Shown piece by piece: positions 6,001-50,889 of a DNA stretch of 64,000 bases (position 1 is its first letter; every line of letters begins with the position of its first letter). A program made the position numbers and the translations under genes. The notes under the pieces are model-generated. The model searched no databases, had not been told where the DNA came from, and saw only the letters and a list, made by a program, of their open reading frames with translations. The DNA is from Candidatus Spongiisociaceae bacterium (GTDB taxonomy: Bacteria; Actinomycetota; Acidimicrobiia; Spongiisociales; Spongiisociaceae), in assembly GCA_965219685.1 (NCBI GenBank), contig CBDCOH010000002.1:3008001-3072000 (forward strand), read 5' to 3'.

Positions 6001-8438
6001 GTCACCGCCCCTGAACTGCCCTGCCGGGTCGCAGTCACGGTGATCTGGTCAGAAAGGGCGTTCTCGCCGAAAGAGGCCGGGTTCACACTCAGCGTGATAT
6101 CGGGGGCGCCGCTCTTGCGGCCCACCGCCCGCACCTCAACCTCATAGGTCGCCCCCGCCTCCAAACCCGGCAGGTTCAAACTCGAAGCCGTTGCCGACAA
6201 CGCCCCGGTGTAATCCGTCCACGCGGCCGCCTTCTTCCGGTACCGCGCCTCATAACCGGTGATGACCAGACCATTGTCATCAGCAGCTGACCAGGACACA
6301 TCCAGAGCCGGATCGGTCGGCTCAGAGAACTCGGTACGGCTCAACGTAGGAGTACCGGGCTTACCAAACTCCCGCTCCTGCACACGGATGATGACGTTGA
6401 TGACCGAGGCGTGGCCATCCACCGTGTAATGAACCTCGCCCCGGTAGAACTTGGCGATCACCTGACCGTTCCACGTCTCCGTCTCCCGGTAGTCACCGTC
6501 TGCAGCGTCGTAGTCGAACACGGCGCCCTCAGCCACACTGATCTGCCCAGACGCCGAATCGATAACGAACAGCCCAGAATCCTTGGCCTTGCCCTCCAAC
6601 GTGTAGGCCAAGGCCACGTTGTTGTAAGGAGTGCCCGTCACCGGAGCCCCCACCGCGGTGCCCGCCGGCGACCCCTCCAAAATGTCCCGGCCCGTCTTCG
6701 CGGTAACCGTCAGAGACGCCTCACGCGTGACTTCACCCCCATAGGGATCACTCGCCGTATAGAAGACCTTCGACGCGCCCTGATTCAACAGATTCGCCGT
6801 CAACACAGAAGACCCCGCAGCACCCGAGAGACTCACCCCCACCAGAGCAGCATGCTCCGCAGACGCCGAATACGTCAACGCGTCACCCTCGGGATCCGAG
6901 AAAAACGGCCCACTCCCGAGAGGCGCCTGCTCGTGCCAAGCAAACTTCCCGCCCATCCCCAACGTGCCACCAAGAAAGGACACACCCGAAGCAACAGGAG
7001 GCCTGTTAGCCATACCCTCGCCGGTATCCGACCACGGACCATCGCCCTCGTCGGCAACCACGCGTACCTGCACCTCGTAGGTCGCCCCCGCCTCCAGGTC
7101 GGGCAGGTTCAAACTGGTGGCTGTGGCAGACAGCGACCCCGTATAAGCCGTCCACTCAGCCGGATCCTCACCCTCCGCCGCCTTCTTCCGGTACTGCGCC
7201 TCATGCCCGGTGATTGTCACGCCTTCGGTGTCGACGGCCGTCCAAGACACGTCCAGGGCTGGGTCCGTCGGCTCGTCAAAGGTGGTGCGTTCAACGCGAA
7301 GGCCGTCGGGTGTCGGGATGGTCGTTTGCGCAGCCGTCCCCAAAATGGCAATAGTGAATGAAACGCCGACCTGGGTTCCGTCAGAGTCTGTGGCGGTGTA
7401 AGTCATGGCGTGGTCGCCGGCCTCGGCCGGAGTGCCCGTAAGCGAGCGGCCGGCCGAGTCGAAGGACAGTCCCTCGGGAAGGGTCGGCGCCAGGCCGTAT
7501 GTGAAGCCGCCGGCGCCGCCCGCAGCCTCGGGCAGCGTTACCGTGCCGATGTCCTCATCCTGGGTGAAGGTGTATCGGCTGGCAGCTGCCGGGAAGTAGG
7601 GCGGAACCTCCACCTCGGGCGCCGGCTCCACTGCAAACCGCAGAGAGGCGGGAGACCCGCAACCGGCGTCGTTGCACGCCTCTACCCGCACCACCCACAT
7701 GCCGTCGCCATCCACGGTGATCTCCGCACCGGAGGACTGCACTTCCACACCGTCGTTCAACTTGTTGCCGGAGCCGGCCACTCGCCAACGCACCCGGTAA
7801 GAGCTCGCACCCTCGACGTCGTCCCAGTCCACCGACACGTCCAGCGAGCCGACAGCAGTACCAACCGTCAACCCCGCAGGCTTAGCGGGGGGTTCCGGAG
7901 CCGTTGCCGGCTCGGGCTCCGACCGTGGCGCCGGGGAAGGCTCAGGCACCGGTTCTGGCGTCGGCTCAGGCGCCGGAGTTGGTGTTGGCTCAGGCGCCGG
8001 TTCCACCGCAAACCGCAGAGCGGCGGGAGACCCGCAGCCGGCGTCGTTGCAGGCCTGTACACGCGCCACCCACTCGCCGTAGTCGGCCACGGTGATCTCC
8101 GCGTCGGAAGACTGCGTCTCCACACCCTCGTTCAACGAGTTACCAGGGCCGGCCACCCGCCAGCGCACCAGGTAAGAGCTTGCACCCTCGACGTCGTCCC
8201 AGTCCACCGACACGTCCAGCGAGCCGACAGCAGTACCAACCGTCAACCCCGCAGGCTTAGCGGGGGGTTCCGGAGCGGTTGCCAGCTCGGCCGGAGGCTC
8301 CACACCGCCGTCCGCGCCCTTCGGACCGTCCCCTGCCGACGTCACGGGCAGGGCCGGCACCGGCATGGTCGCGATGAGGACCAAGGCAAGGCACACCGCA
8401 AGGAGACGATTGGGGCCGCGGAGTCTGGAGAGTTTCAT
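1..8438 (-). CDS. Giant secreted repetitive surface protein/adhesin (FN3, cadherin-like, Ig-like and Calx-beta-like repeats); runs off the left edge
   Basis: ATG at 8438 (MKLSRLRGPNRLLAVCLALVLIATMPVPALP, signal-like). The same frame reads SGLFVID at positions 1-20. ~1.32 kb tandem units contain W...GYEAQYRKK...YEVQVRA (FN3), LFVID..SGQISV...LDY (cadherin), FSDPEGDALTYSAS (Ig/cadherin-like) and GTAT.G.DY...EG.E.I (Calx-beta). Absent from the ORF track, presumably because no stop lies in the window. Confidence 0.9.
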   Translation of the reverse strand, partial: MKLSRLRGPNRLLAVCLALVLIATMPVPALPVTSAGDGPKGADGGVEPPAELATAPEPPAKPAGLTVGTAVGSLDVSVDWDDVEGASSYLVRWRVAGPGNSLNEGVETQSSDAEITVADYGEWVARVQACNDAGCGSPAALRFAVEPAPEPTPTPAPEPTPEPVPEPSPAPRSEPEPATAPEPPAKPAGLTVGTAVGSLDVSVDWDDVEGASSYRVRWRVAGSGNKLNDGVEVQSSGAEITVDGDGMWVVRVEACNDAGCGSPASLRFAVEPAPEVEVPPYFPAAASRYTFTQDEDIGTVTLPEAAGGAGGFTYGLAPTLPEGLSFDSAGRSLTGTPAEAGDHAMTYTATDSDGTQVGVSFTIAILGTAAQTTIPTPDGLRVERTTFDEPTDPALDVSWTAVDTEGVTITGHEAQYRKKAAEGEDPAEWTAYTGSLSATATSLNLPDLEAGATYEVQVRVVADEGDGPWSDTGEGMANRPPVASGVSFLGGTLGMGGKFAWHEQAPLGSGPFFSDPEGDALTYSASAEHAALVGVSLSGAAGSSVLTANLLNQGASKVFYTASDPYGGEVTREASLTVTAKTGRDILEGSPAGTAVGAPVTGTPYNNVALAYTLEGKAKDSGLFVIDSASGQISVAEGAVFDYDAADGDYRETETWNGQVIAKFYRGEVHYTVDGHASVINVIIRVQEREFGKPGTPTLSRTEFSEPTDPALDVSWSAADDNGLVITGYEARYRKKAAAWTDYTGALSATASSLNLPGLEAGATYEVEVRAVGRKSGAPDITLSVNPASFGENALSDQITVTATRQGSSGAVTVDLALLDGTATSGTDYSVWTLPDITIADGSTSGSADLTFTAVRDTDVEGSESIIVSGTADTGASVGNAIITIIDDEQPGPVITGVKTGPWSDTGEGMANRPPVASGVSFLGGTLGMGGKFAWHEQAPLGSGPFFSDPEGDALTYSASAEHAALVGVSLSGAAGSSVLTANLLNQGASKVFYTASDPYGGEVTREASLTVTAKTSRDILEGSPAGTAVGAPVAGTPYNGVALSYTLEGKAKDSGLFVIDSGTGQISVAEGAVLDYDAADGDYRETETHNGQVIAKFYRGEVHYTVDSHDSVINVLIRVNERKPGKPGAPSLSRTEFSEPTDPALDATWTAADDNGLVITGYEAQYRKKAAQGETPAEWTAYTGALSATASSLNLPGLDAGATYEVQVRARARKSSTPDITLSVNPVSLAEPTTSGSVTVTATRQGTSGAVTVDLAVPGGTATDGTDSTALTLPDITIPDGSTSGTADLTFTIWNDELVEGSESIILSGTADTGATVGNAIITILDDEQPGPVITGVKTGPWSDTGQGMANRPPVASGVSFLGGTLGMGGKFAWHEQAPLGTGPFFSDPDEDTLTYSASAEHAALVGVSLSGAAGSSVLTANLLNQGASKVSYVASDAYGGQVTRSASLTVTAKTSRDILEGSPAGTAVGDPVTGTPYNNVALSYTLKGKAKDSGLFVIDSGTGQISVAEGAVLDYYTDDTHREIEMWRGEVFSKFYRGEVHYTVDGHDSVINVLILVNERKFGKPGAPSLSRTEFSEPSDPALDVSWTAADDNGLTITGYEAQYRKKAAQGETPAEWTDFTGALSATASSLNLPGLDAGATYEVQVRAVGRKSGTPDITLSVNPVSLAEPTASGSVTVTATRQGTSGDVTVDLALSGGTATSGTDYTVQALPDITIADGSTSGSATLTFTISDDTDVEGSESIIVSGTATGATVGDAIITIIDDERAGPVITGVRTGPWSDVGEGTANSPPVASGVDFLGGTLGMGGSFAWHEAAPLGAGAFFSDPDDDALTYSASAEHAALVGVSLSGAAGSAVLTASLLNQGASKVSYVASDAYGGQVTRTASLTVTGKTSREILEGSPAGTAVGAPVTGTPYNGVALSYVLKGKAKDSGLFVIDAASGQISVAEGAVLDYHAEDGDYRETETYNGQVIAKFYRGEVHYTVDGHDSVINVLIKVKERKFGKPDAPTLSRTEFSEPTDPALDATWTAADDNGLVITGYEARYRKKAAQGESAAAWTDYTRALSATASSLNLPGLEGGATYEAQVRAVGRTSGTPDITLSVNPVSLAEPTTAGSVTVTATRQGTSGAVTVDLALSDGTATDGTDYTAQTLPDITIADGSTSGTANLTFTISDDTDVEGSESIIVSGTATGATVGDAIVTIIDDERVGPVITGVRTGPWSDTGEGTANRPPVASGVFFGGGTAGMGGSFAWHEQAPLGSGAFFSDADGDALTYSASAEHAALVGVSLSGAAGSSVLTADLLNQGASKVSYTASDGYGGQVTRTASITVTAKTVRDILEGSPAGTAVGAPVTGTPYNGVALSYVLKGKAKDSGLFVIDSASGQISVAEGAVLDYDTDDTHREIETYNGEVFAKFYRGEVHYTVDGHDSVINVLIRVQERKFGKPGAPTLTRTEFSEPSDPALDAAWTAADDNGLVITGYEAQYRKKAAQGENAAGWTDYTGALSATATSLNLPGLEAGATYEVQVRARGRTAVTPDISLSVNPASFAESATSEGITVTATRQGSSGAVTVDLALSGGTATSTIDYSVSTLPDITIADGNTSGSATLTFTGMDDALAEGSESIIVTGTATGATVGRAIITIIDDERAGPVITGVRAGPWSDVGEGMANRPPVASSVSFLGGTLGTGGSFTWSETGSGAFFSDPEGDALTYSASAERPALVGVTLSGTAGSAVLTANLLNQGASEVSYVAGDAYGGQVTRTASITVTAKTSRDVLDGSPAGTAVGTPVTGTPYNGVALSYTLKGKAKDSGLFVI

Positions 8439-8715
8439 CGTCGGGGTGCCAGCCTAGAGTGAAAGTGAACAAAATGTAAAGTGCAAACGCAAAAGATATG
8501 GGGATAATTCTATGTACAACCCAAATACTGGGAGTCATTCTCTTTTCCAAGAGCAACGGCTGGGGAGCTTCCCCGCCTCTGTCTCACCAAGCCGCGTCGG
8601 ACAGGTGTTCGGGTGAGCAGGATGGGAACGGGGGTTCGGAGCTATAGCATTGGCCAGGGATGAGTGATACAGCGCCGGGCAGTGGCGTAGATTGCCGTTA
8701 CATCGTGTGTTCGAT

Positions 8716-8747
8716 GTTACTATCTACGATTAATAGTAGATAGTAAC
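8716..8747. promoter_or_regulatory. Near-perfect 32-bp AT-rich palindrome (putative operator or recombination site)
   Basis: GTTACTATCTAC-GATTAATA-GTAGATAGTAAC: 12-bp perfect arms around an 8-bp spacer. Confidence 0.45.
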
Positions 8748-9034
8748 CAGCTATAAGCCTATGTCAGTTGATAATAAAGGATAGAGTGTAGTTCCGTTCC
8801 AGGTCGCGGTGTCCAAGTTCCCCATCCGGCAAGGGGGCCTTCCTGGATGAGAAGACTGGGGGACGGCGGACCCGTTTACCAGAAGACACAGATGTAAACG
8901 ACTAGCCACAATGACCGTGCATTGTTGTGCACCCATAGCCATGTGATCGCCTGCGGTCGGATGGCTTAGCTGCTCATCTGGCTCTGGCTCATGACCCGAC
9001 GGTCTCTGCAACATCGAGGATGCAACGGAATGGC

Positions 9035-9083
9035 GGTGGGCCCGGAGGGAATCGAACCCTCGACCTTCGGATTAAAAGACCGC
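9035..9083 (-). tRNA. 3' fragment of tRNA-Lys(TTT); probable att-site remnant, not a full tRNA
   Basis: Minus strand CTTTTAA-TCCGAAGGTCGAGGGTTCGATTCCCTCCGGGCCCACC gives the anticodon loop, T-arm and acceptor 3' strand. The D-arm and 5' half are absent. Confidence 0.8.
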
Positions 9084-9469
9084 GTAAACGCCCAGGTAGG
9101 CACCTCATTCGTAGGATACGTCCCACCACTGATCCCACAGCACACACGATATGGCGTTCTTAGACCCTCCTAGGAGGTTATCAGGTAGGCAGTAGCCTTC
9201 GGAGAGAAGTCAGACCGAGGGAGGGCTGCCGGCGACCGAGTCTTGGTACTACCACGGGCTGCCCTATTCACGCGTACTCGCACATCGTCCGGCAAAGTCC
9301 CAGGCGACGCAGAAGCCGGAGCCGCCCTCTATCGCTCTGGTTTCGGAAGCGATGTGTGGGCGGGGTCCTTCGGACAGATCTGCTTGGCGGAACTCAAGCG
9401 ACCCCCGAGATTGCGCCCTGCTCGCCAAGCGGGATTCGGCTGGTAGCCACAAGAATACGGTCGCGGGGA

Positions 9470-9555
9470 CAGAGACCTTCGGCGACGCCGTAGCCGCCGC
9501 AGCCATGGTCGAGCACTTGGTTCACCAAGCCCACGCCATCGTCTTCAAAGGCAAA
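9470..9555 (+). pseudogene. istB: IS21 IstB helper ATPase C-terminal remnant
   Basis: ETFGDAVAAAAMVEHLVHQAHAIVFKG resembles the IstB C-terminal motif. Confidence 0.6.
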
Positions 9556-10086
9556 GGGGCCCATCGGACTCAGATGCTTCTATGTTCCAGTGGTCGCGAC
9601 TGGGGATTTTCAGTGATCGCCGTCACCGCATCACAGGCCTCGCCCCGTGTCCGCCCCGAGAGTGCTGCGTAACACAGCGGAGGAGGTGTCCGTAGCCGGA
9701 ACCCGCGAAAGCCCAGCTAGGCCCTGTGCTGACCACCGACAGAGTAGGTGAAGTCCCACTCCTAATATCACCTTGCGGGTGTGCGCACTCCGCTGCTGGC
9801 CTCCGGGAGCCTGGAGACCGCGCCCGGAGCGGAACGTTGGGGTGTTCAGGAGTTCAAGAGTCGAGGGTAGCCGCGTATCTTCACCGGCGAAGAGTCAGAG
9901 GAGAAGTCGTAGCGATCTTCTGAGGGACTGACGTTGGACGCCGGTCCGGTGAGCCTCGACTCGAGTTCCGTTGGGTTGCGATGGTCCATGACTCCTGGCA
10001 TTCCGGCTTCTCCTGAACGGGTTTCATCGACACGGGGTTGGGAGTTGGGCTACTGTGGCGGACGTGTTGCCGGTCAGGGAAGGCTG

Positions 10087-12390
10087 ATGGACCGCAGTCG
10101 TGTAGCGCTAATGGGTCTGCTGGTTGCCGTGTCTCTGGGTTGGGTGAGTGGCGTCGCAGCGTCGCCGGGGGAAGGGTTTTCTGACAGTGCTGGGAGTGTC
10201 CACCGTCCCGGGATCGACGCCTTGGGCGATCTGGATGTGTTCGAGGGCACGGAGTGTGGCGAAGGATTGTTCTGTCCCCAGGATTCGATCCATCGCTGGG
10301 TGATAGCCGTGTGGCTGGTGCGGGTACTGGACGAGGTACCTGTCGTAGCGTCGGGCGGTTCCCGGTTCGCTGATGTGGATCCGGAACGGTGGTGGGCGCC
10401 ATATGTAGAGCGGCTTGCCGAACTCGGTGTCACCCAGGGCTGCGCAACTGAACCTCTTCGCTTCTGCCCGGACCAGGCAGTAACCAGGGCACAGATGGCA
10501 ACCTTTCTAGTCGGAGCGTTCGGACTGGAAGAGGCCCACGCAGCGGGGTTTGCGGACACATCGGGCAATATCCACGAGTCGAGCATCGACGCCTTGGCAG
10601 CAGCGGGGATCACAGCCGGCTGCGCTACCGGTCCGCCCCGGTTCTGCCCCAACCAGCCCGTCACGCGAGGCCAGATGGCTACTTTCCTCGCTCGGGCCAC
10701 CGGGCTCGTCGAGGTGCCCGACCCGGCTGCTGAACCGTCGGGGAAGTTTGCAGCGGTTGCTTCGGGTTACCACCACACGTGTGGGCTTCGTGTAGAGGGA
10801 ACCATCGCATGTTGGGGTACGAACTGGTTCGAGGATGTGGTGTCACCCGAAGGCTTGTACACCGCGGTTACGGTCGGTCGCAATCACTCGTGTGGACTGG
10901 GTGTCGACCATACGGTGACCTGTTGGACCGGCTACCGGTCGAGTAGCGGCGTACCTGATGGGGAGTTCACCACCATTTCGACCTCTGCCGGAGGCTTCCA
11001 TTCGTGCGGCCTGCGCAAAGACCAGACGGTTGCATGTTGGGGTTCTAACGGTGAGGGACAGACAGACTCACCTGAGGGGCAGTTCATGGCGGTCACCGCC
11101 GGTGAGAGGCACTCGTGCGCGCTACGCACGGACGGGACCGCCACATGCTGGGGCTGGGACAAGGCCGGGGCTACCAACCCACCGGGGGGTGTGTTCACTT
11201 CGATCTCGTCGGGTGGGAGCATCGACGGTGGTCACACCTGCGCGCTGAAGCCCGACCAAACCGCGGTCTGTTGGGGTAACAACTCGAAGGGGCACGGGTT
11301 CGTCTCCGGGCAAACAGATGCACCCAGAGGCAAGTTCATCAGCGTCACGGCGGGCTACGACCACACATGCGGGATCCGCCCCGACCGCTCCCTGACCTGC
11401 TGGGGCAACAACCCCTACGGTGGCACCGACGCCCCCGCCGGAGAGTTCACAGCGGTGTCGCCCGGGTTCTGGTACACATGCGGGTTGCGAACCGACGAGA
11501 CCATCACCTGCTGGGGACATGACCATCTGAGGGCGACCGCTCCCCCGGACACCGACGAACAGTTCACCGCTGTCGAAGTCAGTTCGGGATGGAACGGCGA
11601 CCACGCCTGTGCCCTAAAGACCGATCAGACGATCGTCTGCTGGGGCGCCGACACGGTCCGGAGGGAGAACCCACCCGCAGGGAAGTTCACCTCCCTCAGC
11701 AGCGGCCAACTACATACATGCGGAATCCGTACCGATGGCACCGTCACCTGCTGGGGTGGCTGGGGTCGCGTTACGACATGCATCATCTATTCCGATCGAA
11801 GCGACTGCCGGACCTATTGGGAACACGAACCACCGAAGGAACAATTCAGCGCTGTCAGCAGCGGCTACTCGTACTCGTGCGGCCTCCGCACCGATGGGAC
11901 CGTCGCCTGCTGGGGAACAACCGGGCGCGGGTCTCCCACATCCGACATACCCGCCGAGACCTTTCCCATCTCCAGCGGACATGGACACTCCTGCGGGATT
12001 CGAGCCGACCAGACCGTCACCTGCTGGGGCACCATCGACGAGAAGGCACCCGAAGCACCCGACGGCAAGTTCGCCTCGATCTCTAGCGGTTGGCGATACT
12101 CGTGCGGGGTCCGCACCGACCAAACCGTCACCTGCTGGGGCAACCATCGACAAACCGAAAGACTCGACGGAGCCTTCACCGCGGTGGCCGCCGCGGGAGA
12201 ATACCCATGCGGGATCCGTACCGACGGAACCGTCACGTGCGACCACTGGCGCTTCAATGCGCCCGAAGGGACCTACACAGCAATCTCGGGCGGCTACGCC
12301 CAATTCTGCGGCATCCGTATCGACGGAACCATCAACTGCTGGGGCCGGGTCCCGGTACCGCCCCCCGACGGTGTCAACTGGATTACCTAA
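10087..12390 (+). CDS. SLH-domain + RCC1-like repeat surface protein
   Basis: Signal peptide; SLH motifs (FCPDQAVTRAQMATFL); many F.AVSAG..HTCGLRTD.T..CWG repeats. Confidence 0.9.
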   Translation: MDRSRVALMGLLVAVSLGWVSGVAASPGEGFSDSAGSVHRPGIDALGDLDVFEGTECGEGLFCPQDSIHRWVIAVWLVRVLDEVPVVASGGSRFADVDPERWWAPYVERLAELGVTQGCATEPLRFCPDQAVTRAQMATFLVGAFGLEEAHAAGFADTSGNIHESSIDALAAAGITAGCATGPPRFCPNQPVTRGQMATFLARATGLVEVPDPAAEPSGKFAAVASGYHHTCGLRVEGTIACWGTNWFEDVVSPEGLYTAVTVGRNHSCGLGVDHTVTCWTGYRSSSGVPDGEFTTISTSAGGFHSCGLRKDQTVACWGSNGEGQTDSPEGQFMAVTAGERHSCALRTDGTATCWGWDKAGATNPPGGVFTSISSGGSIDGGHTCALKPDQTAVCWGNNSKGHGFVSGQTDAPRGKFISVTAGYDHTCGIRPDRSLTCWGNNPYGGTDAPAGEFTAVSPGFWYTCGLRTDETITCWGHDHLRATAPPDTDEQFTAVEVSSGWNGDHACALKTDQTIVCWGADTVRRENPPAGKFTSLSSGQLHTCGIRTDGTVTCWGGWGRVTTCIIYSDRSDCRTYWEHEPPKEQFSAVSSGYSYSCGLRTDGTVACWGTTGRGSPTSDIPAETFPISSGHGHSCGIRADQTVTCWGTIDEKAPEAPDGKFASISSGWRYSCGVRTDQTVTCWGNHRQTERLDGAFTAVAAAGEYPCGIRTDGTVTCDHWRFNAPEGTYTAISGGYAQFCGIRIDGTINCWGRVPVPPPDGVNWIT

Positions 12391-12682
12391 ACCCGCCCGA
12401 GCGTTGTCCCCGACCACGCTCACACAGGACTCTCCCGCCGAAACCACCACAACCCGACGCCCAGTGAAGTCCGTTACGTCGTCGTCTTGCAGCGATCGTT
12501 ATCACTACAGCGGATGGACGGTTCGTTACCCGATCACGAGGGCTTGGGCTGGAATCCTCACTCTGCGCGAAACCACTCGTCCCGGGCGGAGTTTACCCCT
12601 GCCTCTTCGGACTGGTGGTCCACCAAACCGGGTCAACCTCAAACCCGAGTTTGGCGGGTTGGATGAACCGCCCCGGATGCTC

Positions 12683-13915
12683 CTATGTTTTGCAAATCGG
12701 TTTTGTGGTCGGGTCGGTGAGCCATTTCTGGTATCGGGTGGCGAGCTGGTGGTTGTGGTGGAGGCCTCGTTCGAGGAGCGAGAGGAGGGTGGGGTGGACC
12801 TGGAGGTGTTCGGCGGCGTCGGTGAGGGTTAGTCGGGTTTGGTGACGTTGGAGGCGGAGGTCGTTGCCGTCGGGTGTTGCGGACGGTTTGGTTAGTAGGT
12901 GGTAGATCTCGCGTGCGATGTGCCGTTTCAGGCAGCGGATGATCTCGCGGCGAGTTTTGCCTTCGGCTTTGCGTCTGCGGGTGTATTCGATGGTGCGGGG
13001 GTCGGTGCGCATCCGGTTGGTGGCGATTCGCCAGAGAGCGTTGTTGGCTTGGCGGTCGCCGCCTCGGTTGAGCCGATGCCGAACTATCTGTCCCGATGAT
13101 GCTTGGACGGGGCTGAGGGCGCATAGTGCCGCGAAGGACCGTTCCGATTTCATGCGTTGGGGGTTGTCGCCGGCGGCGACTAGGAGTGCTGCAGCGCTGT
13201 GGGGGCCCACTCCGGAGGCGGCTAGGAGCGCCGGGTTGGCCTTGGCGCAGAGACGGCGGATCTCGGTGTCGAGTTCGGCTATTTCTGTGTCGAGGGTCCG
13301 GTATCGGCGGGCCAGGTGCCGCAGCGCCTTTTTCGCGTACGCGGTGGTGGTCTGCGCTTCGCCGGGACGCCAGCGGACACAGATTCTGACCATCGCTTGG
13401 ATACTGGAGCCCCGGAGCCGATGTTTGACCTGCTCAGGGGCGGTTGTGAGGAGGGCGTGGATCTGGTTGGCGGCCTGGATGCGTGCTTTGACCGCTGAAC
13501 GGCGAGCCATCCGAAGCATTCTTATCCCTTCTACGGGTCCGTCCCCGCCTTTGGGTCGCCCGGTGGCATCTCCGCTGAGGGCAGCTCGGGCTGCGGCCTC
13601 GGCGTCGACGGTGTCGGTCTTGCCCCTGAGACGACGCAGCTGGCGGTTGGGACGCATGACCTCCACCACCTCGATGTCGGCTCGGGTCAGATAACGAGCC
13701 AGGCCGGCGCCGTAACTACCGCATCCTTCCACACCGACCTGAACCGGCTGCCCCCAGGAGCGAAGCCACTCCTCCAGCTGCGCGTATCCCGCCGCATCAG
13801 CCCTGAACTGCGCCGACCCCAGTAGGCGACCCGTGTGATCCAGCACCGCTCCAACGTGGACATCCCGATGGGTATCAACCCCTCCATACACATCGACCTG
13901 GTCTTGTTCCGGCAT
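12683..13915 (-). CDS. IS110 recombinase with C-terminal XRE-like HTH
   Basis: GGVDTH, VGVEG, KTDTVDAEAAA (DEDD); ASSG catalytic serine; GGDRQAN; HTH-like tail. Confidence 0.92.
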   Translation of the reverse strand: MPEQDQVDVYGGVDTHRDVHVGAVLDHTGRLLGSAQFRADAAGYAQLEEWLRSWGQPVQVGVEGCGSYGAGLARYLTRADIEVVEVMRPNRQLRRLRGKTDTVDAEAAARAALSGDATGRPKGGDGPVEGIRMLRMARRSAVKARIQAANQIHALLTTAPEQVKHRLRGSSIQAMVRICVRWRPGEAQTTTAYAKKALRHLARRYRTLDTEIAELDTEIRRLCAKANPALLAASGVGPHSAAALLVAAGDNPQRMKSERSFAALCALSPVQASSGQIVRHRLNRGGDRQANNALWRIATNRMRTDPRTIEYTRRRKAEGKTRREIIRCLKRHIAREIYHLLTKPSATPDGNDLRLQRHQTRLTLTDAAEHLQVHPTLLSLLERGLHHNHQLATRYQKWLTDPTTKPICKT

Positions 13916-13929
13916 GCGCTCTGCCTCCC

Positions 13930-14155
13930 CTCTCCTTGTGTCGGAATAGGCTTGTGCGGCAGCGCCGGTCCGAAGCGGGTGGACAAAACACTCAGGGTGT
14001 GGGGAAGAAACGACCAAAGCTCCTATGAGGTCACATCCGCTCCGGGCTGGCTGCCCGTACCCCCCGACCGGTGCCCGGCCGACAGATCCGGGGTAAGGCA
14101 CCACAGCCAGTTTCCCGGTGGGTCAGACCAGGCCCCGGTCGAGGTCCCCTTAAGT
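13930..14155 (-). ncRNA. Putative bridge RNA of IS110-A (boundaries approximate)
   Basis: Guide-like segments CCGGGAAAC and ACCCCGG match the target flanks; CATAGGAGC and TGAGTG match the element's own ends. Confidence 0.75.
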
Positions 14156-14183
14156 ATGAGTGTTTCTCCGGAGACTCGATTAG

Positions 14184-15443
<1,260 letters not shown>

Positions 15444-15559
15444 ACCACTCTCCGGCAAACCCGGGGCGGTTCAGTGGGAGGGATGGTTAGGGGCGTTCGG
15501 GGCGTGTGTGGCTGGGGTTTGGGTGGTTGGTTCCGTTTGCGGGGGCCTGTTGGGTGGGT

Positions 15560-16891
15560 TCAGCAGCGCTGGGGCAGCGTCCGGAGGTTAGCGAGGGTGG
15601 TCTGGTAGGTGTGCGCCCAGGGCCATCGGGCGGGTAGTCGCAGTATGGGGCGTCCGCTGTGGTTGACCACCCGTGCGGGAATCCCGAAGATGCGGGTGCG
15701 GATGGTGCGTCCACGGATCAGCCGCCCGGCCGGCTGTGTTCGTCCCAAGATGGCTATCCAGCGGTAGAGGTTATGCGCTAGAGCGGCGCAGAGAAGCCAG
15801 GCCTGGTTAGCGGCGAACCGTCCCGATGGTAGATGAGCGAGACCCCCGGAGTCTTTGAGGTCGCGGATGGCGAGTTCGCAGACCGCATGGTGTCGGTGGT
15901 GGCGGTCCGCTTGTGGGGCAGGCGCATGCGAGTTGGTCACGAACGCGTGGTAACGCCAGTCGGGCCAGAACTCTTGCTGGGCGCCGGTGAGGCGGGTGCG
16001 GCGCACCACGAGGCGTACTCGGCGTTTCTGCTTACGTTTGCGGGGGTTGGTCATCTCAAGTGTGGTTTCCCCAACTTGTGCCCGGCCGCCTTCGGGATAG
16101 TCGATATCTGCCCAGTCGTCTTCGTCGATAGCCGCTATAGCGGCTAGGACATGGCGGAGTTGTGGGCAGGTGATCGACCAGCCCACCCCGAGGTGGTCCA
16201 AGGTTGCCAACATGGCATAGGACCAGAAGCCCGAATCGGCCCGAACCTCGATCCGTCCCCGAGCCCCGGCCCGTCGCGCGCACCGGATCGTCTCCTGCGC
16301 GAAATGGGCCACACCCCGCCGCGATGCTCCGGCCCTTAGCCGGGCACCCACCGCCTCTCCTGTATCGGCCCGGAACGCCAACAGCGGGTGATAACCCAAC
16401 TCTTTGGTGTACCCATAGGAGGCGCCCTCCTTGCCCCTGCCAGACACTCCACAGATCGTCGAGTCCAAATCCAAGGTCAGCGGTCTCTTCCCCGGGCCGG
16501 CACCCGCTGCCCACGCACGACCCAGCGCCACGCCCAAAACCTTGTTCAACTGGCGGGTGTGGCCCCAGGTAAACGACCGCAGGAAAGTGCCCACCGTCGA
16601 AGGTGCCATCACCTCATGGGACAGCACCCGATGCGTCGACCCCGCCCGCAGCCGATCCACATGATCGATGTGAGAGCCCCCCACCAGCATCGCGGACACC
16701 AACGTCAAGGTCTTACGACCCGGCCGCGCGCCACCCACCCGACCGCCCAAACGGACCACGTCGTCCACCAACTCTTCCAACCCCAGACGGCTCATCAACG
16801 TCGACGCCGCCAACAGACCCCCATCGGCCACCAACCCCTCATCGTCGAAAACCACCTCATACCGGTCAACATTGTGCGATACTCCACTCAC
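15560..16891 (-). CDS. IS1380-family transposase
   Basis: LDLDST, GYHPL, RADSGF, ELAIRDLK, PSGRFAAN; IR-like CCTGGATCCACC upstream at about 17001-17012. Confidence 0.9.
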   Translation of the reverse strand: MSGVSHNVDRYEVVFDDEGLVADGGLLAASTLMSRLGLEELVDDVVRLGGRVGGARPGRKTLTLVSAMLVGGSHIDHVDRLRAGSTHRVLSHEVMAPSTVGTFLRSFTWGHTRQLNKVLGVALGRAWAAGAGPGKRPLTLDLDSTICGVSGRGKEGASYGYTKELGYHPLLAFRADTGEAVGARLRAGASRRGVAHFAQETIRCARRAGARGRIEVRADSGFWSYAMLATLDHLGVGWSITCPQLRHVLAAIAAIDEDDWADIDYPEGGRAQVGETTLEMTNPRKRKQKRRVRLVVRRTRLTGAQQEFWPDWRYHAFVTNSHAPAPQADRHHRHHAVCELAIRDLKDSGGLAHLPSGRFAANQAWLLCAALAHNLYRWIAILGRTQPAGRLIRGRTIRTRIFGIPARVVNHSGRPILRLPARWPWAHTYQTTLANLRTLPQRC

Positions 16892-19690: not shown

Positions 19691-19744
19691 GGCCCTGCGC
19701 GAAAACACTCATACTTGTAGGGTCCTCTAAACCGGGGCGGTTCA
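19691..19744 (+). mobile_element. Composite scar: ISL3 left IR, IS110 left end, IS3 IR
   Basis: GGCCCTGCGCGAAAAC + ACTCATACTTGTAGGGTCCTC (identical to the IS110-D left end) + AAACCGGGGCGGTTCA. Confidence 0.8.
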
Positions 19745-27834: not shown

Positions 27835-29306
27835 TCTTACCTCAACTAATAGGGCAGGCTGAGTTCTGACTCGGTAATTTGTGCTGTTCCGCTGATCACC
27901 ATCAACTCCACTCGGATACTCTCCTCGTATTCGGTATAGTGTTACGGTGTAGCCATACGGCTTGGTGGGGACGAGTGGCAGCCGTGAGAGTGCCGCTCCG
28001 TCTTACTGTTTGGGTACGGGCGCTGAATAGTTTCTTGCCCTAGGTCCGCTACCCGTTTCTCGCGCAGACCCATAACCTCAGAGGTTAGTCGCCAGCAAGT
28101 GCAGGGAGTGCTGTGTCACTGGGGCGGCCTTCCCTTCGAGCGCCGGGAGAGTTTCACCCAGCGGTATCCGGTAACTGTGTGTGAGCACTGTGTAAAGGGT
28201 GCAGGATCGGGCAATCGGGGTATAGAGTGGATAGGGAGGAGTACGATATAAGAAAAGAACGTGTAAGTGGGTAACGACATACGATATATGTAAATCGTAC
28301 ATGGGGCGCCTGAGCGGAAGGTTGGATTGTGTGCAGGGGAAGGAACGACCAAAGGACAGTTCAACGTACCCCGCTGGCCAGTCTCTCTTCGGTCAGTTCC
28401 TCGTGTTGCCACGGCGGGCTGGCGCCGGAGGTGACTCATGTCTCGACTATGCGGCGGAGGGTGTCCAGCAGGTAATCGCCGCCCTGGCGGTCGATCCGTT
28501 CGTCGAGACCGATGTATCCGATGAGGCGTTGCTCAACCGCGCCGACGAGGGAGTATGCGGCCTGCTCCGTCTCCCGATGGTGGTAGTCGACGAAGAAAGT
28601 GCCAGGCTTCCTGCATGACCTCGACGCGTCCAGCAGACCACTTGATGGCCAGCCCCGGTGTGTCGGCAGGGCCGGTATCGCGGATGGTATCCGTGTCTGG
28701 CGGCTGGTTGTCACATACAATCTCTTGCAGTCCGTTCCTTGGCTGATTGCCGAAGCGCAGCGGCGGTCTTCTGACGGCGTTCATGTCACGGACGGGAGCC
28801 TCCGCTTGCTTTAGTTCCGGTCGCTTGCCCAATGAGGTGATGGTCGTCTGGGGTGGATCCGGGGTTGGGTGGCTTTGCCAGTTCGGTAGGAATCGGCACC
28901 CGGGTGCTGGTTTCTGCCGAATCCGCCAAGGCTTGGTCCTCCGGCCACTCGAAGGTTTGGCGGCGCGCAGATCGGGTTCCAGGCGCCTGTACCTCGGGCC
29001 GTGTTCCCCGGATTGGCCAAGCTTCGACGCGGACAGGGAACGGGGCCGTCTGCGGGATGGGGGAGGTGTCTCGGGTTGGCGGGGTCGACCTAGCCGGTCG
29101 TATCCGGCTGGCGCTTCCGTTGTGCTGACTCCCCGGTCGTGGGGTTCTTGTTCGCGTAGGGCTCGTTTCGGGGTTTAGGTGGGGTGGTGGCCCCAGCGTT
29201 GCGCGCCGAGGTATCGGCCGGTTGCTAGGTCGTGGTCCTCGAGGGTTTCGATGAGACGTTCTGCGGGGCTGTTGGACCAGCCGAGGCGGTTGGTGTCTTG
29301 TTGGTC

Positions 29307-30656
29307 GGCCCTGCGCGGAAATGTGGGATGGGTGGGTTGAAATCCTTGGATTGGGGGTGAGGCCCCGCTGGAATCGGTGAAGACCAAATCGCCGAATCCC
29401 AGGAGGGGCCTCGATGTCTGATGTTATGTCTGTTCGTCTGCACTTGTCGGGTGTTCGCGTTAAGGGGGTGCCGGTCGATTCCGTTGATCGCCTCGAGGTT
29501 GAGGTGGAATCGACCAGGGAGTGGTCCCGGTGTCCTCATTGTGGGTTCCGCTGCTCCAAGGTGTGGGACCGGCGAGCGAAGCGGGTTCGTGACTTGGAGG
29601 TGAGCGGCCGGCGCACGACTCTGGTGTGGCGTCGCCGCCGGTTCTGGTGTGGTAACTGTGAGGAGCGGCACCTGGAGGACCACGACCAGTTCCGGGCGGG
29701 GTTGACTCGCCGGTTCGCGCAGCGTCTTGTTCAGGACGCCAGGCGGATGTCGATTAGGGCGGCTTCCCGTCATCACGGGGTGGGTTGGCATCGGATCATG
29801 GGCCTGGTGAGAGCTGAGGCGGCTCGGGTAGCGAAGCGTCGCCGCTCCCGACCCTGTCGGGTGTTGTTGGTGGACGAAACGTCGATCCGGCGCCGGCATC
29901 GTTATGTGACCGTGGTTGCTTGTGGCGACACCGGCAAAGTGTTGGCGATGATCCCAGGCCGGACGAAAGCGTCTCTGACCAGGTTCTTCAGAGACCAGGG
30001 GGCATGGTGGTGTCGGCAGGTGGAGATCGTCGTCTCCGACGGATCACGCTCATACCAGGCAGCCATCGCCCAGTACCTGCCCGACGCCCGCCACGTCCTC
30101 GACCGGTTCCACGTCGCGCGGTGGTTTACCGAAGGCTTGACCCTGGTACGCCGTGAACTGCAACGCCGCCCCCCAGATCAGCGGCCCCCCACATACGAGC
30201 CGGACCTTTTCCGAGCCCGGTTCACCCTCCTACGGCGGGCGGATCATCTCACAGACGGGCACCACAAGCACCTCGACCGCCTATTCGACGCTCACCCCCG
30301 GCTCCGCACCGCCTGGGACGCTCTCCAAGAGCTCTACCAGCTGTACCAATCCGAAGACCTCGACGGCGCCAACCAGGCGCTGGGGCGGTTCGCCGACCTC
30401 TACGCCACCGGTCAGATCCCCGAATACCACGACATCGTGGACACCATCATCGCCTGGGGAGAAGAGATACTGGCCTACCACCGCAGCAGACGAGCAACCA
30501 ACGGACCCATCGAAGGAATCAACAACCTGCTCCAAGTCCTACGCCGCGTCGCTCACGGGTTCACCAACACCAACAACTTCGCAGCCCGAGGAATCCTCGT
30601 AACATGACCCACCACACCGACCACAGCGCCCAAAACCCACGAAATCGCGAAGCCTC
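29307..30656 (+). mobile_element. ISL3-family element with 8-bp TSD TGTTGGTC
   Basis: TSD at 29299-29306 and 30657-30664; ends GGCCCTGCGCG and GAGGCTTCGCG (reverse complement). Confidence 0.92.
29414..30607 (+). CDS. ISL3 transposase
   Basis: CPHC zinc finger; VDE; DRFH; TNGPIEGINN. Confidence 0.92.
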   Translation: MSDVMSVRLHLSGVRVKGVPVDSVDRLEVEVESTREWSRCPHCGFRCSKVWDRRAKRVRDLEVSGRRTTLVWRRRRFWCGNCEERHLEDHDQFRAGLTRRFAQRLVQDARRMSIRAASRHHGVGWHRIMGLVRAEAARVAKRRRSRPCRVLLVDETSIRRRHRYVTVVACGDTGKVLAMIPGRTKASLTRFFRDQGAWWCRQVEIVVSDGSRSYQAAIAQYLPDARHVLDRFHVARWFTEGLTLVRRELQRRPPDQRPPTYEPDLFRARFTLLRRADHLTDGHHKHLDRLFDAHPRLRTAWDALQELYQLYQSEDLDGANQALGRFADLYATGQIPEYHDIVDTIIAWGEEILAYHRSRRATNGPIEGINNLLQVLRRVAHGFTNTNNFAARGILVT

Positions 30657-39362: not shown

Positions 39363-40056
39363 GTTGCAGGTTGCTGTGGCTATAGAGCAGGCTGGGGATT
39401 TCGAGTGGGCATCGTGGGTCGCTGGGCGGGGACGCTTGCCGCGGGAGGGTTGGCTTCGTGGTTCGGTTGACGACCTGGCTGCGTTCGTGGACAGGGCAGG
39501 CGAGGACGCGGCCGGCCTGTCGGGGCTGGTGGACGACGTGCGTGACACGCTGTCGGCGGCGGCTCTACAGGTGGAGAACTATCCTAACGGCGAGGCCATC
39601 TCCGCGGAGTTCGGGGACGTGCTCTATCAGGCCGGGGGGGTGTCCCTGTCTTGTTGTCAAGCCGCTTTGGGCAGTTTCTCGGGTTGGCGGGGTTGGTAGG
39701 GCGTTTGGGTCTTGAGCATGTGATGGCGATCGAAACCGGGGCGGTTCACACAGGGTGGTGATGCTCCTATGACGCTCCTATATTGTGCAAGTCGGTTGTC
39801 GGGTGTCGATCCATTGTTGGTATCGGGTGGCGAGGTGGTGGTTGTGGTAGAGGCCCCGCTCGAGTCGCGATAGGAGGGTGGGTTGGGTATCGAGGTGGTG
39901 GGCGGCCTGGGTGAGGGTGATCCGGGCTTGGGTTCGACGGTTGCGTAGGTGGGTACCGTCCGGTGTTGGGTGGGGATTGGTCAGCAGTCGGTAGATCTCT
40001 CGGGCGATGTGCCGCTTGAGGCAGCGGATGATCTCTTTTCGTTTCTTTCCCTCGGC

Positions 40057-44361: not shown

Positions 44362-44410
44362 CCGAACCTCTCCCCACCCCCAACACCGGATTTGCACAAC
44401 ATAGAAGCAT

Positions 44411-44572
44411 CAAGGTGGTGGAGAACGGACAAAGCTCCTATTAGGTCACATCCGCTCCCCGGGCCTAGGGACCTCCCCCAAGGCCGGGAACAGGCCGACA
44501 GGTCATAGAAAAGGCACAACGGCCAGTTTGTCAATGGGTCAGACCCGCCCCGGCCAAGGGGGTCCTACCAGT
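44411..44572 (-). ncRNA. Putative bridge RNA of IS110-B, 5' part (remainder at about 42970-43031)
   Basis: Target guides TTGACAAAC and TTCTATG; donor guide ATAGGAGC. Confidence 0.72.
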
Positions 44573-44583
44573 ATGAGTGGTTG

Positions 44584-49182: not shown

Positions 49183-49224
49183 GAGGTGATCTCCTCTCCT
49201 GAGGCTTCGCGAAAACACTCATAC

Positions 49225-49430
49225 TTGTAGGGTCCTCCTCGGCTGGGGGCCGGGTCTGACCCACGCGAAAACTGGCGTTTGGTGCCTTTCCCACGATCTG
49301 TCGACCTGGCCCTAGCCGGGAGCCCTGAACCGGGGAGCGGGGTGACCTTATAGGAGCTTCGACTTCTCCACCTTGAGTGTTCTGTCCGCCGCTCTGTCCG
49401 GCTCAGGGGGACTTGGAATTGTAGGCAGTT
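49225..49430 (+). ncRNA. Putative bridge RNA of IS110-D (boundaries approximate)
   Basis: CGCGAAAAC and TCCCACG match the target flanks; ATAGGAGC and TGAGTG match the element's own ends. Confidence 0.8.
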
Positions 49431-49446
49431 GGCGGAAGGTGGGCAC

Positions 49447-50682
49447 ATGGAAGAGCAAGATCGAGCCGATGGCATGGTTGTGGTCGGTGGGGTGGACACG
49501 CATCGGGATACCCATGTTGGGGCGGTGGTCGATAGCGCGGGTCGGCTGTTGGGATCGGCCCAGTTCCGGGCTGATACGGCCGGCTATGGGCAACTTGTCG
49601 CCTGGATGGAGTCGTGGGGTCGGATCAGCCGGGTCGGGGTGGAAGGGACTGGCAGCTACGGTGCCGGCTTGGCCCGTCACCTCACCGGCGCCGGTATCGA
49701 GGTGGTGGAGGTGAACCGTCCCAACCGCCAGCTACGCCGCCGGCGGGGCAAGGACGACCACACCGACGCCGAGGCAGCAGCTCGGGCAGCTCTGAATGGT
49801 GAAGCAACCGCGGTGCCCAAGTCCGGCGACGGGCCGGTCGAGTGGATACGGATGCTGACAGTGACGCGCCGCTCCGCCGTCAAGGCCCGCACCCAGGCCG
49901 CCAACCAACTCCATGCCTTGGTGGTTGGTGCCCCAGAGCCGATAAAAGACCAGGTAAAGGGCATGAAACTCAAAGGCCTGGTTAAGACTTGTGCCCGGTT
50001 CCGACCCAGCGGAGAGTCCTCCCTCAGCTACGCTAAGCAGGCTCTCCGCCGCCTGGCCCGCCGCTACCAGGTCCTCGACACCGAGATCGCAGAACTCGAT
50101 GTCGAGATCCGCCGCCTCTGCGCCAAGGCCAACCCGGCGCTCCTAGCCGCCGACGGCGTCGGCCCCGACACAGTCGCCAAGCTCCTAGTCGCAGCCGGCG
50201 ACAACCCCCAGCGCATGAAATCGGAACGATCCTTCGCTGCGCTGTGCGGTGTCAGCCCTGTGCAGGCGTCATCTGGGCGAAGGGTTCGGCATCGTCTCAG
50301 CCGAGGCGGCAACCGCCAAGCAAACAGCGCCCTGTGGCGGATCGCTACCAACCGGATGCGGACCGACCCCGCCACCCAAGAATACGTCGCCAGACGAGAG
50401 GCTGAGGGCAAAAAGCGAACCGAGATCATCCGCTGCCTCAAGCGGCACATCGCCCGAGAAACCTACCGGCTCCTCACCAACCCGCCACCAACCCCGAACT
50501 GCGCCCGGCTACGCAGCCGACGCCAACAACGCGGAATCACCGTCACCGAGGCCGCCCGAACTCTCGGAACCTACCCCAGCCGCATCTCAGCACTCGAGCT
50601 AGGCCGAGACCACAACCACCAACTCGCTACCCGATACCAGAGGTGGCTCCGAACCCACGAACCGGCCCCATCGCCGATTTGA
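49447..50682 (+). CDS. IS110 recombinase with C-terminal XRE-like HTH
   Basis: GGVDTH, VEG, KDDHTDA, ASSG; tail LRSRRQQRGITVTEAARTLG...ISALELG. Confidence 0.93.
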   Translation: MEEQDRADGMVVVGGVDTHRDTHVGAVVDSAGRLLGSAQFRADTAGYGQLVAWMESWGRISRVGVEGTGSYGAGLARHLTGAGIEVVEVNRPNRQLRRRRGKDDHTDAEAAARAALNGEATAVPKSGDGPVEWIRMLTVTRRSAVKARTQAANQLHALVVGAPEPIKDQVKGMKLKGLVKTCARFRPSGESSLSYAKQALRRLARRYQVLDTEIAELDVEIRRLCAKANPALLAADGVGPDTVAKLLVAAGDNPQRMKSERSFAALCGVSPVQASSGRRVRHRLSRGGNRQANSALWRIATNRMRTDPATQEYVARREAEGKKRTEIIRCLKRHIARETYRLLTNPPPTPNCARLRSRRQQRGITVTEAARTLGTYPSRISALELGRDHNHQLATRYQRWLRTHEPAPSPI

Positions 50683-50889
50683 CAAACATAGGAGCATCGT
50701 GGGGTAGGGCTGCTGTTGTCGGTGCGGGGGCTCATGTTACGAGAACTCCTCGGGCTGCGAAGTTGTTGGTGTTGGTGAAGCCGTGAGCGACTCGGCGTAG
50801 GACCTGGAGCAAGTTGTTGATCCCTTCGATGGGTCCGTTGGTTGCTGGTCTGCTGCGGTGGTAGGCGAGGATTCCTTCTCCCCATGCAC

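Follow-up and report, generated by a model that had tools for sequence, protein, structure and literature searches.

The window analysed here, a 64,000-nucleotide stretch of a Candidatus Spongiisociaceae bacterium genome (G000:C2:3008001-3072000), carries an IS110-family element, designated IS110-A, at 12677-14161 on the minus strand (1485 bp), which interrupts the left inverted repeat (IRL) of an IS3-family element 12 bp from the tip. We consider it very probable (roughly 0.9) that IS110-A is an autonomous element whose bridge RNA specifies the IRL junction of the co-resident IS3 elements and which inserts there at a single C. The anatomy of the element, its site use, the covariation of its guides with the flanks, the covariation of the RNA fold and the conserved catalytic residues are all observed directly and carry this reading. 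A preliminary description of the same DNA, made from the sequence alone, had already proposed an IS110 bridge RNA programmed against the IS3 terminal repeat. That proposal agrees with the flanks, all of which are IRL-like, and with the target guides, which covary with them. The extent given there, 12664-14175, pointed to the right locus but added 13 and 14 nt of the IS3 repeat to the element.

On the plus strand, the sequence across the insertion reads TGAACCGCCCCG-G[IS110]G-TTTCTCCGGAGACTC. The outer 12 bp of the IRL (TGAACCGCCCCG, 12664-12675, plus strand) are severed from the rest of IS3 by the insertion, while the inner 16 bp (GTTTCTCCGGAGACTC, 14162-14177, plus strand), recognised by comparison with uninterrupted copies, follow on the other side. 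The core C of the minus strand stands at the right junction (12676) and is repeated at 14162, whereas the empty site has it once. Such an empty site is preserved in an uninterrupted IS3 copy at C2:3159433-3159460, where the same 28 bp are contiguous. The genome holds five other complete IS3 copies and a truncated one; in these six the uninterrupted IRL reads TGAACCGCCCCGGTT(A/T)C(C/T)CCGGAGACTC, and the outer 12 bp run straight into GTT(T/A)C.CCGGAGACTC. The earlier claim that the element splits the IS3 left repeat is thus borne out by the separated outer and inner segments and by the empty sites in uninterrupted IS3 copies. By comparing the occupied and the empty site, we found no multi-bp target duplication for IS110-A; one C is common to both junctions.

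Tabulation of the genomic copies gave the same picture. Three A-type copies are full-length and keep an open 410-aa gene: the window copy, L002 (C2:215870-217382) and L003 (C2:4231539-4233049). A nested, frameshifted copy broken by two other insertions lies at C2:3129998-3134360, a left-end fragment at C2:3094678-3094833, and a decayed fragment without terminus at C2:1705684-1705831. In this genome, all five preserved left flanks are IS3-IRL-like at the same position and end in the 16-mers ...CCGGAGAAAC, CCGGGGAAAC (twice), CAGGGGTAAC and CCGGGGGAAC; all four preserved right flanks open with the IS3 tip (CGGGGCGGTTCA, or CGGTCCGGTTCA in L002). The outer contexts of the A-type copies are five and all different, which indicates that the insertions were separate events. 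A copy in the related genome G001 (92% nucleotide identity) lies inside an IS3-like IRL that continues into a full IS3-like element, and a variant in G002 (84% identity) occupies an IRL-like site in which CGGGG is preceded by an additional C and the spacing between left and right target (LT-to-RT) is 1 nt longer. No copy with the same guides was found at an unrelated site among these loci (five of five in this genome, one in G001 and the variant in G002). The unoccupied IS3 IRLs number six, four with GGGGTAAC, one with GGAGAAAC and one with GGGGAAAC.

The same flanks would be seen if the 12 + 16 bp of IS3-like sequence travelled with IS110-A as a longer mobile unit and were not an RNA-chosen target, and it is true that the IS3-like sequence around L002 and L003 is exactly 28 bp long and gives way to unique DNA. 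We rejected this explanation as very improbable. In the window and in G001 the 16 bp continue into a full IS3-like element, and the uninterrupted 28 bp are present without IS110-A in six IS3 copies. The flanks also vary (GGAGAAAC, GGGGAAAC, GGGGTAAC, GGGGGAAC; CGGTCC in L002), as independent targets would, no target duplication lies outside the 28 bp, and the sister classes described below obey the same guide-flank rule with unrelated flanks. Around the stubs of L002 and L003 themselves there is likewise no duplication outside the 28 bp, and in L003 the outer tip is tandemly doubled.

The bridge RNA body is located in the left end of the element, at 13960-14136 on the minus strand, and consists of two stem-loops, each with an internal loop. 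In the consensus fold, the target-binding stem-loop occupies 14070-14136 and the donor-binding stem-loop 13960-14050 (both minus strand). This fold was derived from an alignment of the left ends of 13 elements from G000, G001, G002 and G007, which have the ends ACTCATACT... and ...CATAGGAGCAT in common but different sites. The alignment retained 32 pairs, with 94.2% of the cells paired compared with 34-52% when the partners were slid, and compensatory changes occurred in 11 pairs; the covariation score was reached by none of 500 shuffles, a control that kinship among the elements inflates. The covarying two-stem-loop fold, together with the Pfam domains of the encoded protein, supports the earlier identification of an element of IS110 type whose left end encodes a bridge RNA. 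A single-sequence fold of the window RNA (z = -1.76), in which the guide segments were paired together, was uninformative and was set aside in favour of the alignment fold.

Within the target-binding loop, the left target guide CCGGGAAAC (14110-14118, minus strand) has the same sense as the left half of the target plus the core, and the right target guide ACCCCGG (14088-14094, minus strand) is antisense to the target. Extended over core and handshake positions, the right segment ACCCCGGAT (14086-14094, minus strand) is complementary to ATCCGGGGT, which is made up of donor AT, the core C and then target CGGGG. Across classes A to F the left guide covaries with the left flank and the right segment with the right flank, and their places in the loop follow a simple rule: the 9 nt 5' of a conserved (T)GGC hairpin are the sense of the left flank, and the 6-7 nt 5' of GATCTGTCG are antisense to the right flank. 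Class A combines the guides CCGGGAAAC and ACCCCG with the site GGGGAAAC/C-CGGGG. Class B has CGCGAAAAC and TCCCAC for the site CGCGAAAAC/C-GTGGGA, and class C has ACTGAAATC and TTCATC for ACTGAAATCC/C-GATGA. Class D pairs CTCCTTGTAAC and GTCAT with CTCCTCGTAAC/C-ATGA, class E CTGAAATTC and CTGGG with TTGAGATTC/C-CCCA, and class F CCTGATTC and ATGAA with CCTGATTC/C-TTCAT. Both target guides switch together with the flanks in sister classes B to F, which have the same ends. Scored over 15 positions, the nine cognate guide-flank pairs reach 11-14, compared with a mean of 6.25 and a maximum of 10 in the 64 non-cognate, between-class pairs, and additional loci obey the rule. Within class A, the left guide matches the flanks of two other copies of this genome and of the G001 copy (GGGGAAAC) over the last 7-8 nt; in the window copy, one or two mismatches to the site occur.

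The donor-binding loop recognises the ends of the element in the same manner. Its left donor guide CATAGGAGC (14019-14027, minus strand) matches the right end ...CATAGGAGCAT, with a mismatch at position 7 and a G-U pair at position 9, and in classes E (GTAGGAGC) and F (ATAGAAGC) guide and right end have changed together. The right donor guide with its handshake positions, TGAGTGTTTT (13985-13994, minus strand), is complementary to AAAACACTCA, that is, target AAAC followed by left-end ACTCA; its part TGAGTG (13989-13994) can pair with CACTCA, a word formed by the core C and the left end. The preliminary description had named four segments as target and donor guides. Three of them (CCGGGAAAC, ACCCCGG and CATAGGAGC) are present exactly where it placed them on the minus strand. 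For the fourth, the segment is real and reads TGAGTG at 13989-13994; the GAGTGT given for it lies one base over, at 13988-13993. The assignment of all four to target and donor loops agrees with their covariation with flanks and right ends across the classes.

Position 8, immediately before the common C, differs between the partners: the empty IS3 and ISL3 sites have A, the element's right end has T, and so the "dinucleotide" core is common to target and donor at one base only. The right target guide runs on into ...GGAU, complementary to donor A-T-C, and the right donor guide into ...GUUUU, complementary to target AAAC; each right guide is thus complementary to the opposite partner at positions 7-8. 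The definitions of the guides and the handshake principle follow the available text of PMC11208160 and PMC11208158, and the latter describes non-cognate-strand pairing after exchange as helpful and cognate-strand pairing before exchange as blocking. As far as sequence can tell, the position-8 pattern fits this published logic. Classes A and A2 have identical target loops and differ in crossover register and right donor guide. The G002 variant also has the target loop of A; at position 8 its site carries C, matched by a G in its right donor guide (GAGTGG). From these differences we infer that position 8 decides between the IRL and sites with the LT-to-RT spacing longer by 1 nt.

This selection would also explain why no right inverted repeat (IRR) is occupied. 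The preliminary description had noted that the left target guide is better matched to the right IS3 repeat, and taken alone it is: 8/9 positions agree with the IRR word CCGGCAAAC, 7/9 with the window site CGGAGAAAC. The preference disappears once both guides and the crossover register are counted, because an extra C before CGGGG in the IRR shifts the register of both the right guide and the handshake position. None of the 11 IRR-type tips in the genome is occupied. In every copy the left junction retains the base of the target and the right junction that of the donor. Uniform junctions of this kind would be expected if products are determined by the top strand, a claim made in bioRxiv 10.1101/2025.10.25.684509, and they may reflect such a product, other explanations being possible.

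The recombinase gene (12683-13915, minus strand) is an intact open reading frame (ORF) of 410 aa, here called P0001, with both IS110 domains: an N-terminal DEDD (RuvC-like) domain (PF01548, E 3.7e-22, residues 12-158) and a C-terminal Tnp domain (PF02371, E 3.6e-18, residues 230-312), both found with Pfam. P0001 alone gave no match to solved structures at E <= 0.001 and only spurious ones at E <= 10, while a profile of five homologues retrieved the IS621 transposase (8wt6, E 2.2e-14). In this alignment the GxDT, VEGTG, K.DTVDA and SSG motifs of the profile line up with IS621 motifs, the SSG (S273/S274) lying opposite the ESG of IS621. D14, E63, D101, D104 and S274 are invariant in the five homologues and are aligned with catalytic residues of IS621, whose roles, including that of S241, are given in the accessible text of PMC11208158. 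P0001 also has a C-terminal extension (residues ~345-410, window 12683-12880) that is absent from IS621. A weak Xre-type helix-turn-helix (HTH) signal appears in this tail (HTH_31, residues 352-386, 21.7 bits, below the Pfam cut-off), and the structure search gave weak HipB/Xre matches to it.

IS110-A begins with ACTCATACTT... and ends with ...CATAGGAGCAT, and these ends are kept in 16 related copies; they are not inverted repeats of each other, and the element has no terminal inverted repeats. The element ends 6 nt after the stop codon (12683 to 12677), and the start codon is preceded by 246 nt of non-coding sequence. According to the part of PMC11187229 that we could consult, elements of the IS1111 group have subterminal inverted repeats, and their non-coding region follows the transposase gene. 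In IS110-A the non-coding region is upstream, and no subterminal repeats are visible in the ends. Judged from this arrangement, the layout is that of the IS110 group and not of the IS1111 group.

Given such a tail, one may ask whether the protein (for example through its C-terminal HTH-like tail) or DNA structure picks the site, the guide matches being incidental. Besides the weak HTH_31 and Xre/HipB matches, the distribution of insertions could be cited for it. There are 51 unoccupied sites that differ from the 12-nt guide-matching word at one position at most; seven of them lie in an inverted repeat context and 44 outside it, though the insertions are in that context in five of five cases. 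This bias hints at an extra layer of specificity or at selection. As the whole explanation of site choice, however, protein or DNA structure is hardly credible. Across classes with proteins 53-74% identical to P0001, both target guides change in step with the flanks, and class-specific RNA-DNA matches could not be produced by a shared protein motif.

Several observations weigh against a bridge RNA programmed for the IS3 IRL. An exact copy of the 12-nt word, GGGAAACCGGGG, is unoccupied at C2:4334267, outside any inverted repeat, and an exact 12-nt site in the IRL of the truncated IS3 (C2:4317395) is unoccupied as well. The site of the window copy itself has two mismatches to the 9-nt left guide, and a class C copy, L047, lies in a poorly matching site. 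L002 and L003 sit in 28-bp IRL-like stubs with unique DNA beyond and no recognisable IS3. For the bridge RNA, a scan of 12000-16500 at E <= 1 found no Rfam family, only the ALIL of IS3. The candidate promoter of this RNA is a consensus match (4/6 + 4/6) of TTGCAA-17 nt-CATACT across a hypothetical circle junction, and joints of a circle or of a restored empty site were not seen in X1, X2, X5 and X19, four of 23 sequencing runs, all of them available as contigs, which are uninformative on this point.

For the poorly matching locus (L047/L069, a G002-type locus), the left match is about 6/10 and the right almost nothing; it may represent an off-target or half-match insertion, or a later rearrangement. 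For L002 and L003, no second IS3-type repeat or IS3 body was found within 1.6 kb, and the ORFs adjoining the stubs are not transposases, as judged by inspection only. L002 is 385 bp downstream of a tRNA-Val, and relatives align only as far as that tRNA; an Rfam search of L002 and L003 returned a tRNA only. The left flank of L003 and the first 550 nt of its right flank had no match in seven genomes of the genus. Both copies lie in strain-specific DNA, and an empty orthologous site was not found for either among the relatives.

The proposed mechanism can be outlined as follows. The target-loop guides CCGGGAAAC (sense) and ACCCCGG (antisense) would specify ...GGGAAAC/CGGGG..., the junction of the outer 12 and inner 16 bp, and the donor-loop segments CATAGGAGC and TGAGTG would recognise the right and left ends of the element. 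The recombinase, with its DEDD and Ser residues, and the bridge RNA would then insert the element at the single C inside the IS3 repeat, with handshake pairing expected to appear only after strand exchange. Expression of the RNA from a junction promoter, a circular intermediate and the order of strand exchange are presumed steps. The candidate promoter consists of a -35 box, TTGCAA (12690-12695, minus strand), in the right end and a -10 box, CATACT (14153-14158, minus strand), in the left end, and the two would face each other only in a circular right end-left end junction. The sister classes carry TTGACA, and the portion of PMC11208160 available places the -35 of IS621 in its right end and the -10 in its left end. 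Loose ends at 14162 and 14168 in the run contigs derive from other IS3 copies with an intact IRL. Runs X1-X4 may stem from the source sample. The RNA library X19 covers only parts of the stretch, and DNA carry-over is possible.

The host of IS110-A continues from 14162 to 15473 (plus strand), where its right inverted repeat ends. It contains orfA (14202-14525, plus strand; Pfam HTH_Tnp_1), a frameshift pseudoknot (14480-14596, plus strand; Rfam ALIL, 102.8 bits) and the orfB region (14522-15443, plus strand; Pfam rve), which is split between two frames in the window copy. In the five other complete copies, orfB is open in the -1 frame and encodes 326 aa. The window copy is ~89% identical to the others and one base longer. 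The ends of these elements are TGAACC...GGTTCA, and 3-bp duplications (CTT, ATC, ATG) flank three of the five other complete copies. On its orfA HTH, orfB rve domain, frameshift signal, TG...CA repeats and 3-bp duplications, the host element is assigned to the IS3 family. With its IRL interrupted and orfB split between frames, the window IS3 copy has probably been inactivated twice over. A repeat parted from its outer 12 bp should no longer work as an end, and it is reasonable to infer that the insertion would disable IS3.

Whether disabling IS3 is what the insertion is for is another matter. The preliminary description called IS110-A a hyperparasite that disables the IS3 repeat. Alternatively, IS3-type repeats may serve as a safe, multi-copy and mobile landing pad on which IS110-A hitch-hikes, the inactivation of IS3 being a side effect. 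That alternative agrees with the reading given above on anatomy and mechanism and departs only from the hyperparasite; we give it an even chance, and it fits equally well as antagonism. In its favour, some A copies lie in stubs consisting of the repeat only or in a mini-element of the IRR + IRL type known from a 49-bp example, with no transposase to disable. Lineage B targets an ISL3 terminal repeat, and the class D target resembles a subterminal ISL3 site. Published relatives, in the parts of PMC11187229 and PMC12288879 available to us, use repetitive extragenic palindromic (REP) sequences, attC sites and transposon inverted repeats. Against it, insertion always cuts off the outermost part of the repeat, 12 bp in IS3 (A) and 16 bp in ISL3 (B), and this is the likeliest place to kill an end.

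The sister lineages extend these observations beyond IS3. Class B (69% protein identity) has a window copy at 49217-50697 (plus strand), is aimed at CGCGAAAAC/GTGGG and lies 16 nt into the terminal repeat of an ISL3-family element of 1.35 kb. Uninterrupted copies of its target are present at C2:105044, 107116, 108440, 3147615 and 3147701. A copy of this ISL3-family element occupies window positions ~29304-30656, with its transposase at 29414-30607 (PF01610, E 1.3e-60). The class D site (CTCCTCGTAAC/ATGAGCCC; L049, G007) resembles, by eye only, the subterminal ISL3 segment AATCCTCGTAAC ATGACCC at window 30590-30612. Lineage B, with the likeness of class D, indicates that landing in the ends of other insertion sequences (ISs) is a habit of this clade, whose nearest named records are metagenome-assembled genomes (MAGs) labelled Acidimicrobiia or Candidatus Spongiisociaceae. 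A bolder reading, which we offer as a tentative and rather doubtful one, is that the clade radiated by retargeting its bridge RNA onto IS ends (A onto IS3, B onto ISL3, D probably onto subterminal ISL3), as programmed inactivators of competing transposons. Position 8 and the handshake guide, rather than the main guides, would then tell near-identical sites apart, and the uniform junctions would be a top-strand footprint. If the interrupted repeats are dead, such elements would form a built-in brake on the expansion of IS3 and ISL3 in IS-rich symbiont genomes.

Several further observations were made on these elements and their surroundings. The window belongs to an IS-dense region at about 3.02-3.16 Mb of C2, and a tRNA scan of window 8000-16000 found none. 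The 49-bp mini-element, at C2:2939823-2939871, consists only of IRR-type and IRL-type IS3 repeats back to back. A second IRR + IRL mini-element (C2:3129977-3134372) hosts the nested pile around an A-type IS110, into which a 42%-related IS110 has inserted and whose right end carries a further insert of ~1.5 kb. More IS110 end fragments are found in the window at 9573-9584, 19707-19744, 39760-39771, 44400-44411 and 44569-44578. At 19707, a 21-nt head of a B-type left end in an ISL3 repeat is joined directly to TAAAC and an IS3 outer tip; this junction looks like a rearrangement product. In a related MAG, L066 contains at 300-624 a tandem array of 6.4 copies, with a 51-nt period and 100% matches, that spans the left-end head through the left target guide. 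It looks as if the array arose by repeated recombination at the DNA copy of the element's own guide, which resembles half its target.

Relatives with comparable habits have been described. ISPpu9 and ISPpu10 of Pseudomonas putida (IS110 family) insert site-specifically into a repeated sequence, as reported in the accessible part of PMC12288879, and a hybrid junction promoter has been reported for ISPpu10; their targets are REP or intergenic repeats, whereas IS110-A targets IS ends. IS4321 and IS5075 (IS1111 family) insert at one position in the terminal inverted repeats of the Tn21 family, according to the text of PMC11187229 that was available. They belong to the IS1111 group, with subterminal inverted repeats and an RNA region usually downstream, while IS110-A has neither and carries its RNA upstream; their host is a Tn3-family transposon, that of IS110-A is IS3. 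ISEc21, an IS110-family element with an upstream non-coding region, is like IS110-A in that its natural target is inside IS3-family elements (PMC11187229, as far as its text was accessible). That target is a coding segment of the IS3-family transposase genes, however, whereas IS110-A uses the terminal IRL, 12 bp from the tip. In the open literature searched, with ISfinder, subscription journals and supplementary target tables outside its scope, we found no IS110-type element described as targeting the terminal repeat of an IS3, and no paper pairing "IS110" with "hyperparasit". The supplementary target lists of PMC11187229 and PMC11208160, which lay outside this search, could contain such cases.

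The closest mechanistic model is IS621 of E. coli (IS110 family), which resembles IS110-A in its DEDD + Ser recombinase and in a left-end RNA with target and donor loops. In the available portions of PMC11208160 and PMC11208158, its left guides have top-strand sense, its right guides are antisense, and its handshake positions are 3' of the right guides, as in IS110-A. The two proteins are very distant, and IS110-A has ~65 extra C-terminal residues. The core of IS621 has CT in common between target and donor, while that of IS110-A has only C, the target having A and the donor T at position 8. The natural target of IS621 is a REP sequence; that of IS110-A is an IS3-type inverted repeat. By analogy, the mechanism appears to be IS621-type bridge recombination, and targeting of other mobile elements is already in print. 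Since mechanism and general behaviour are already described for relatives, the gain is incremental: IS110-A adds a case of one insertion sequence programmed into the terminal repeat of another, and, with its close relatives, different readable targets and changes in handshake and core, it offers a natural data set for the rules of bridge RNAs.

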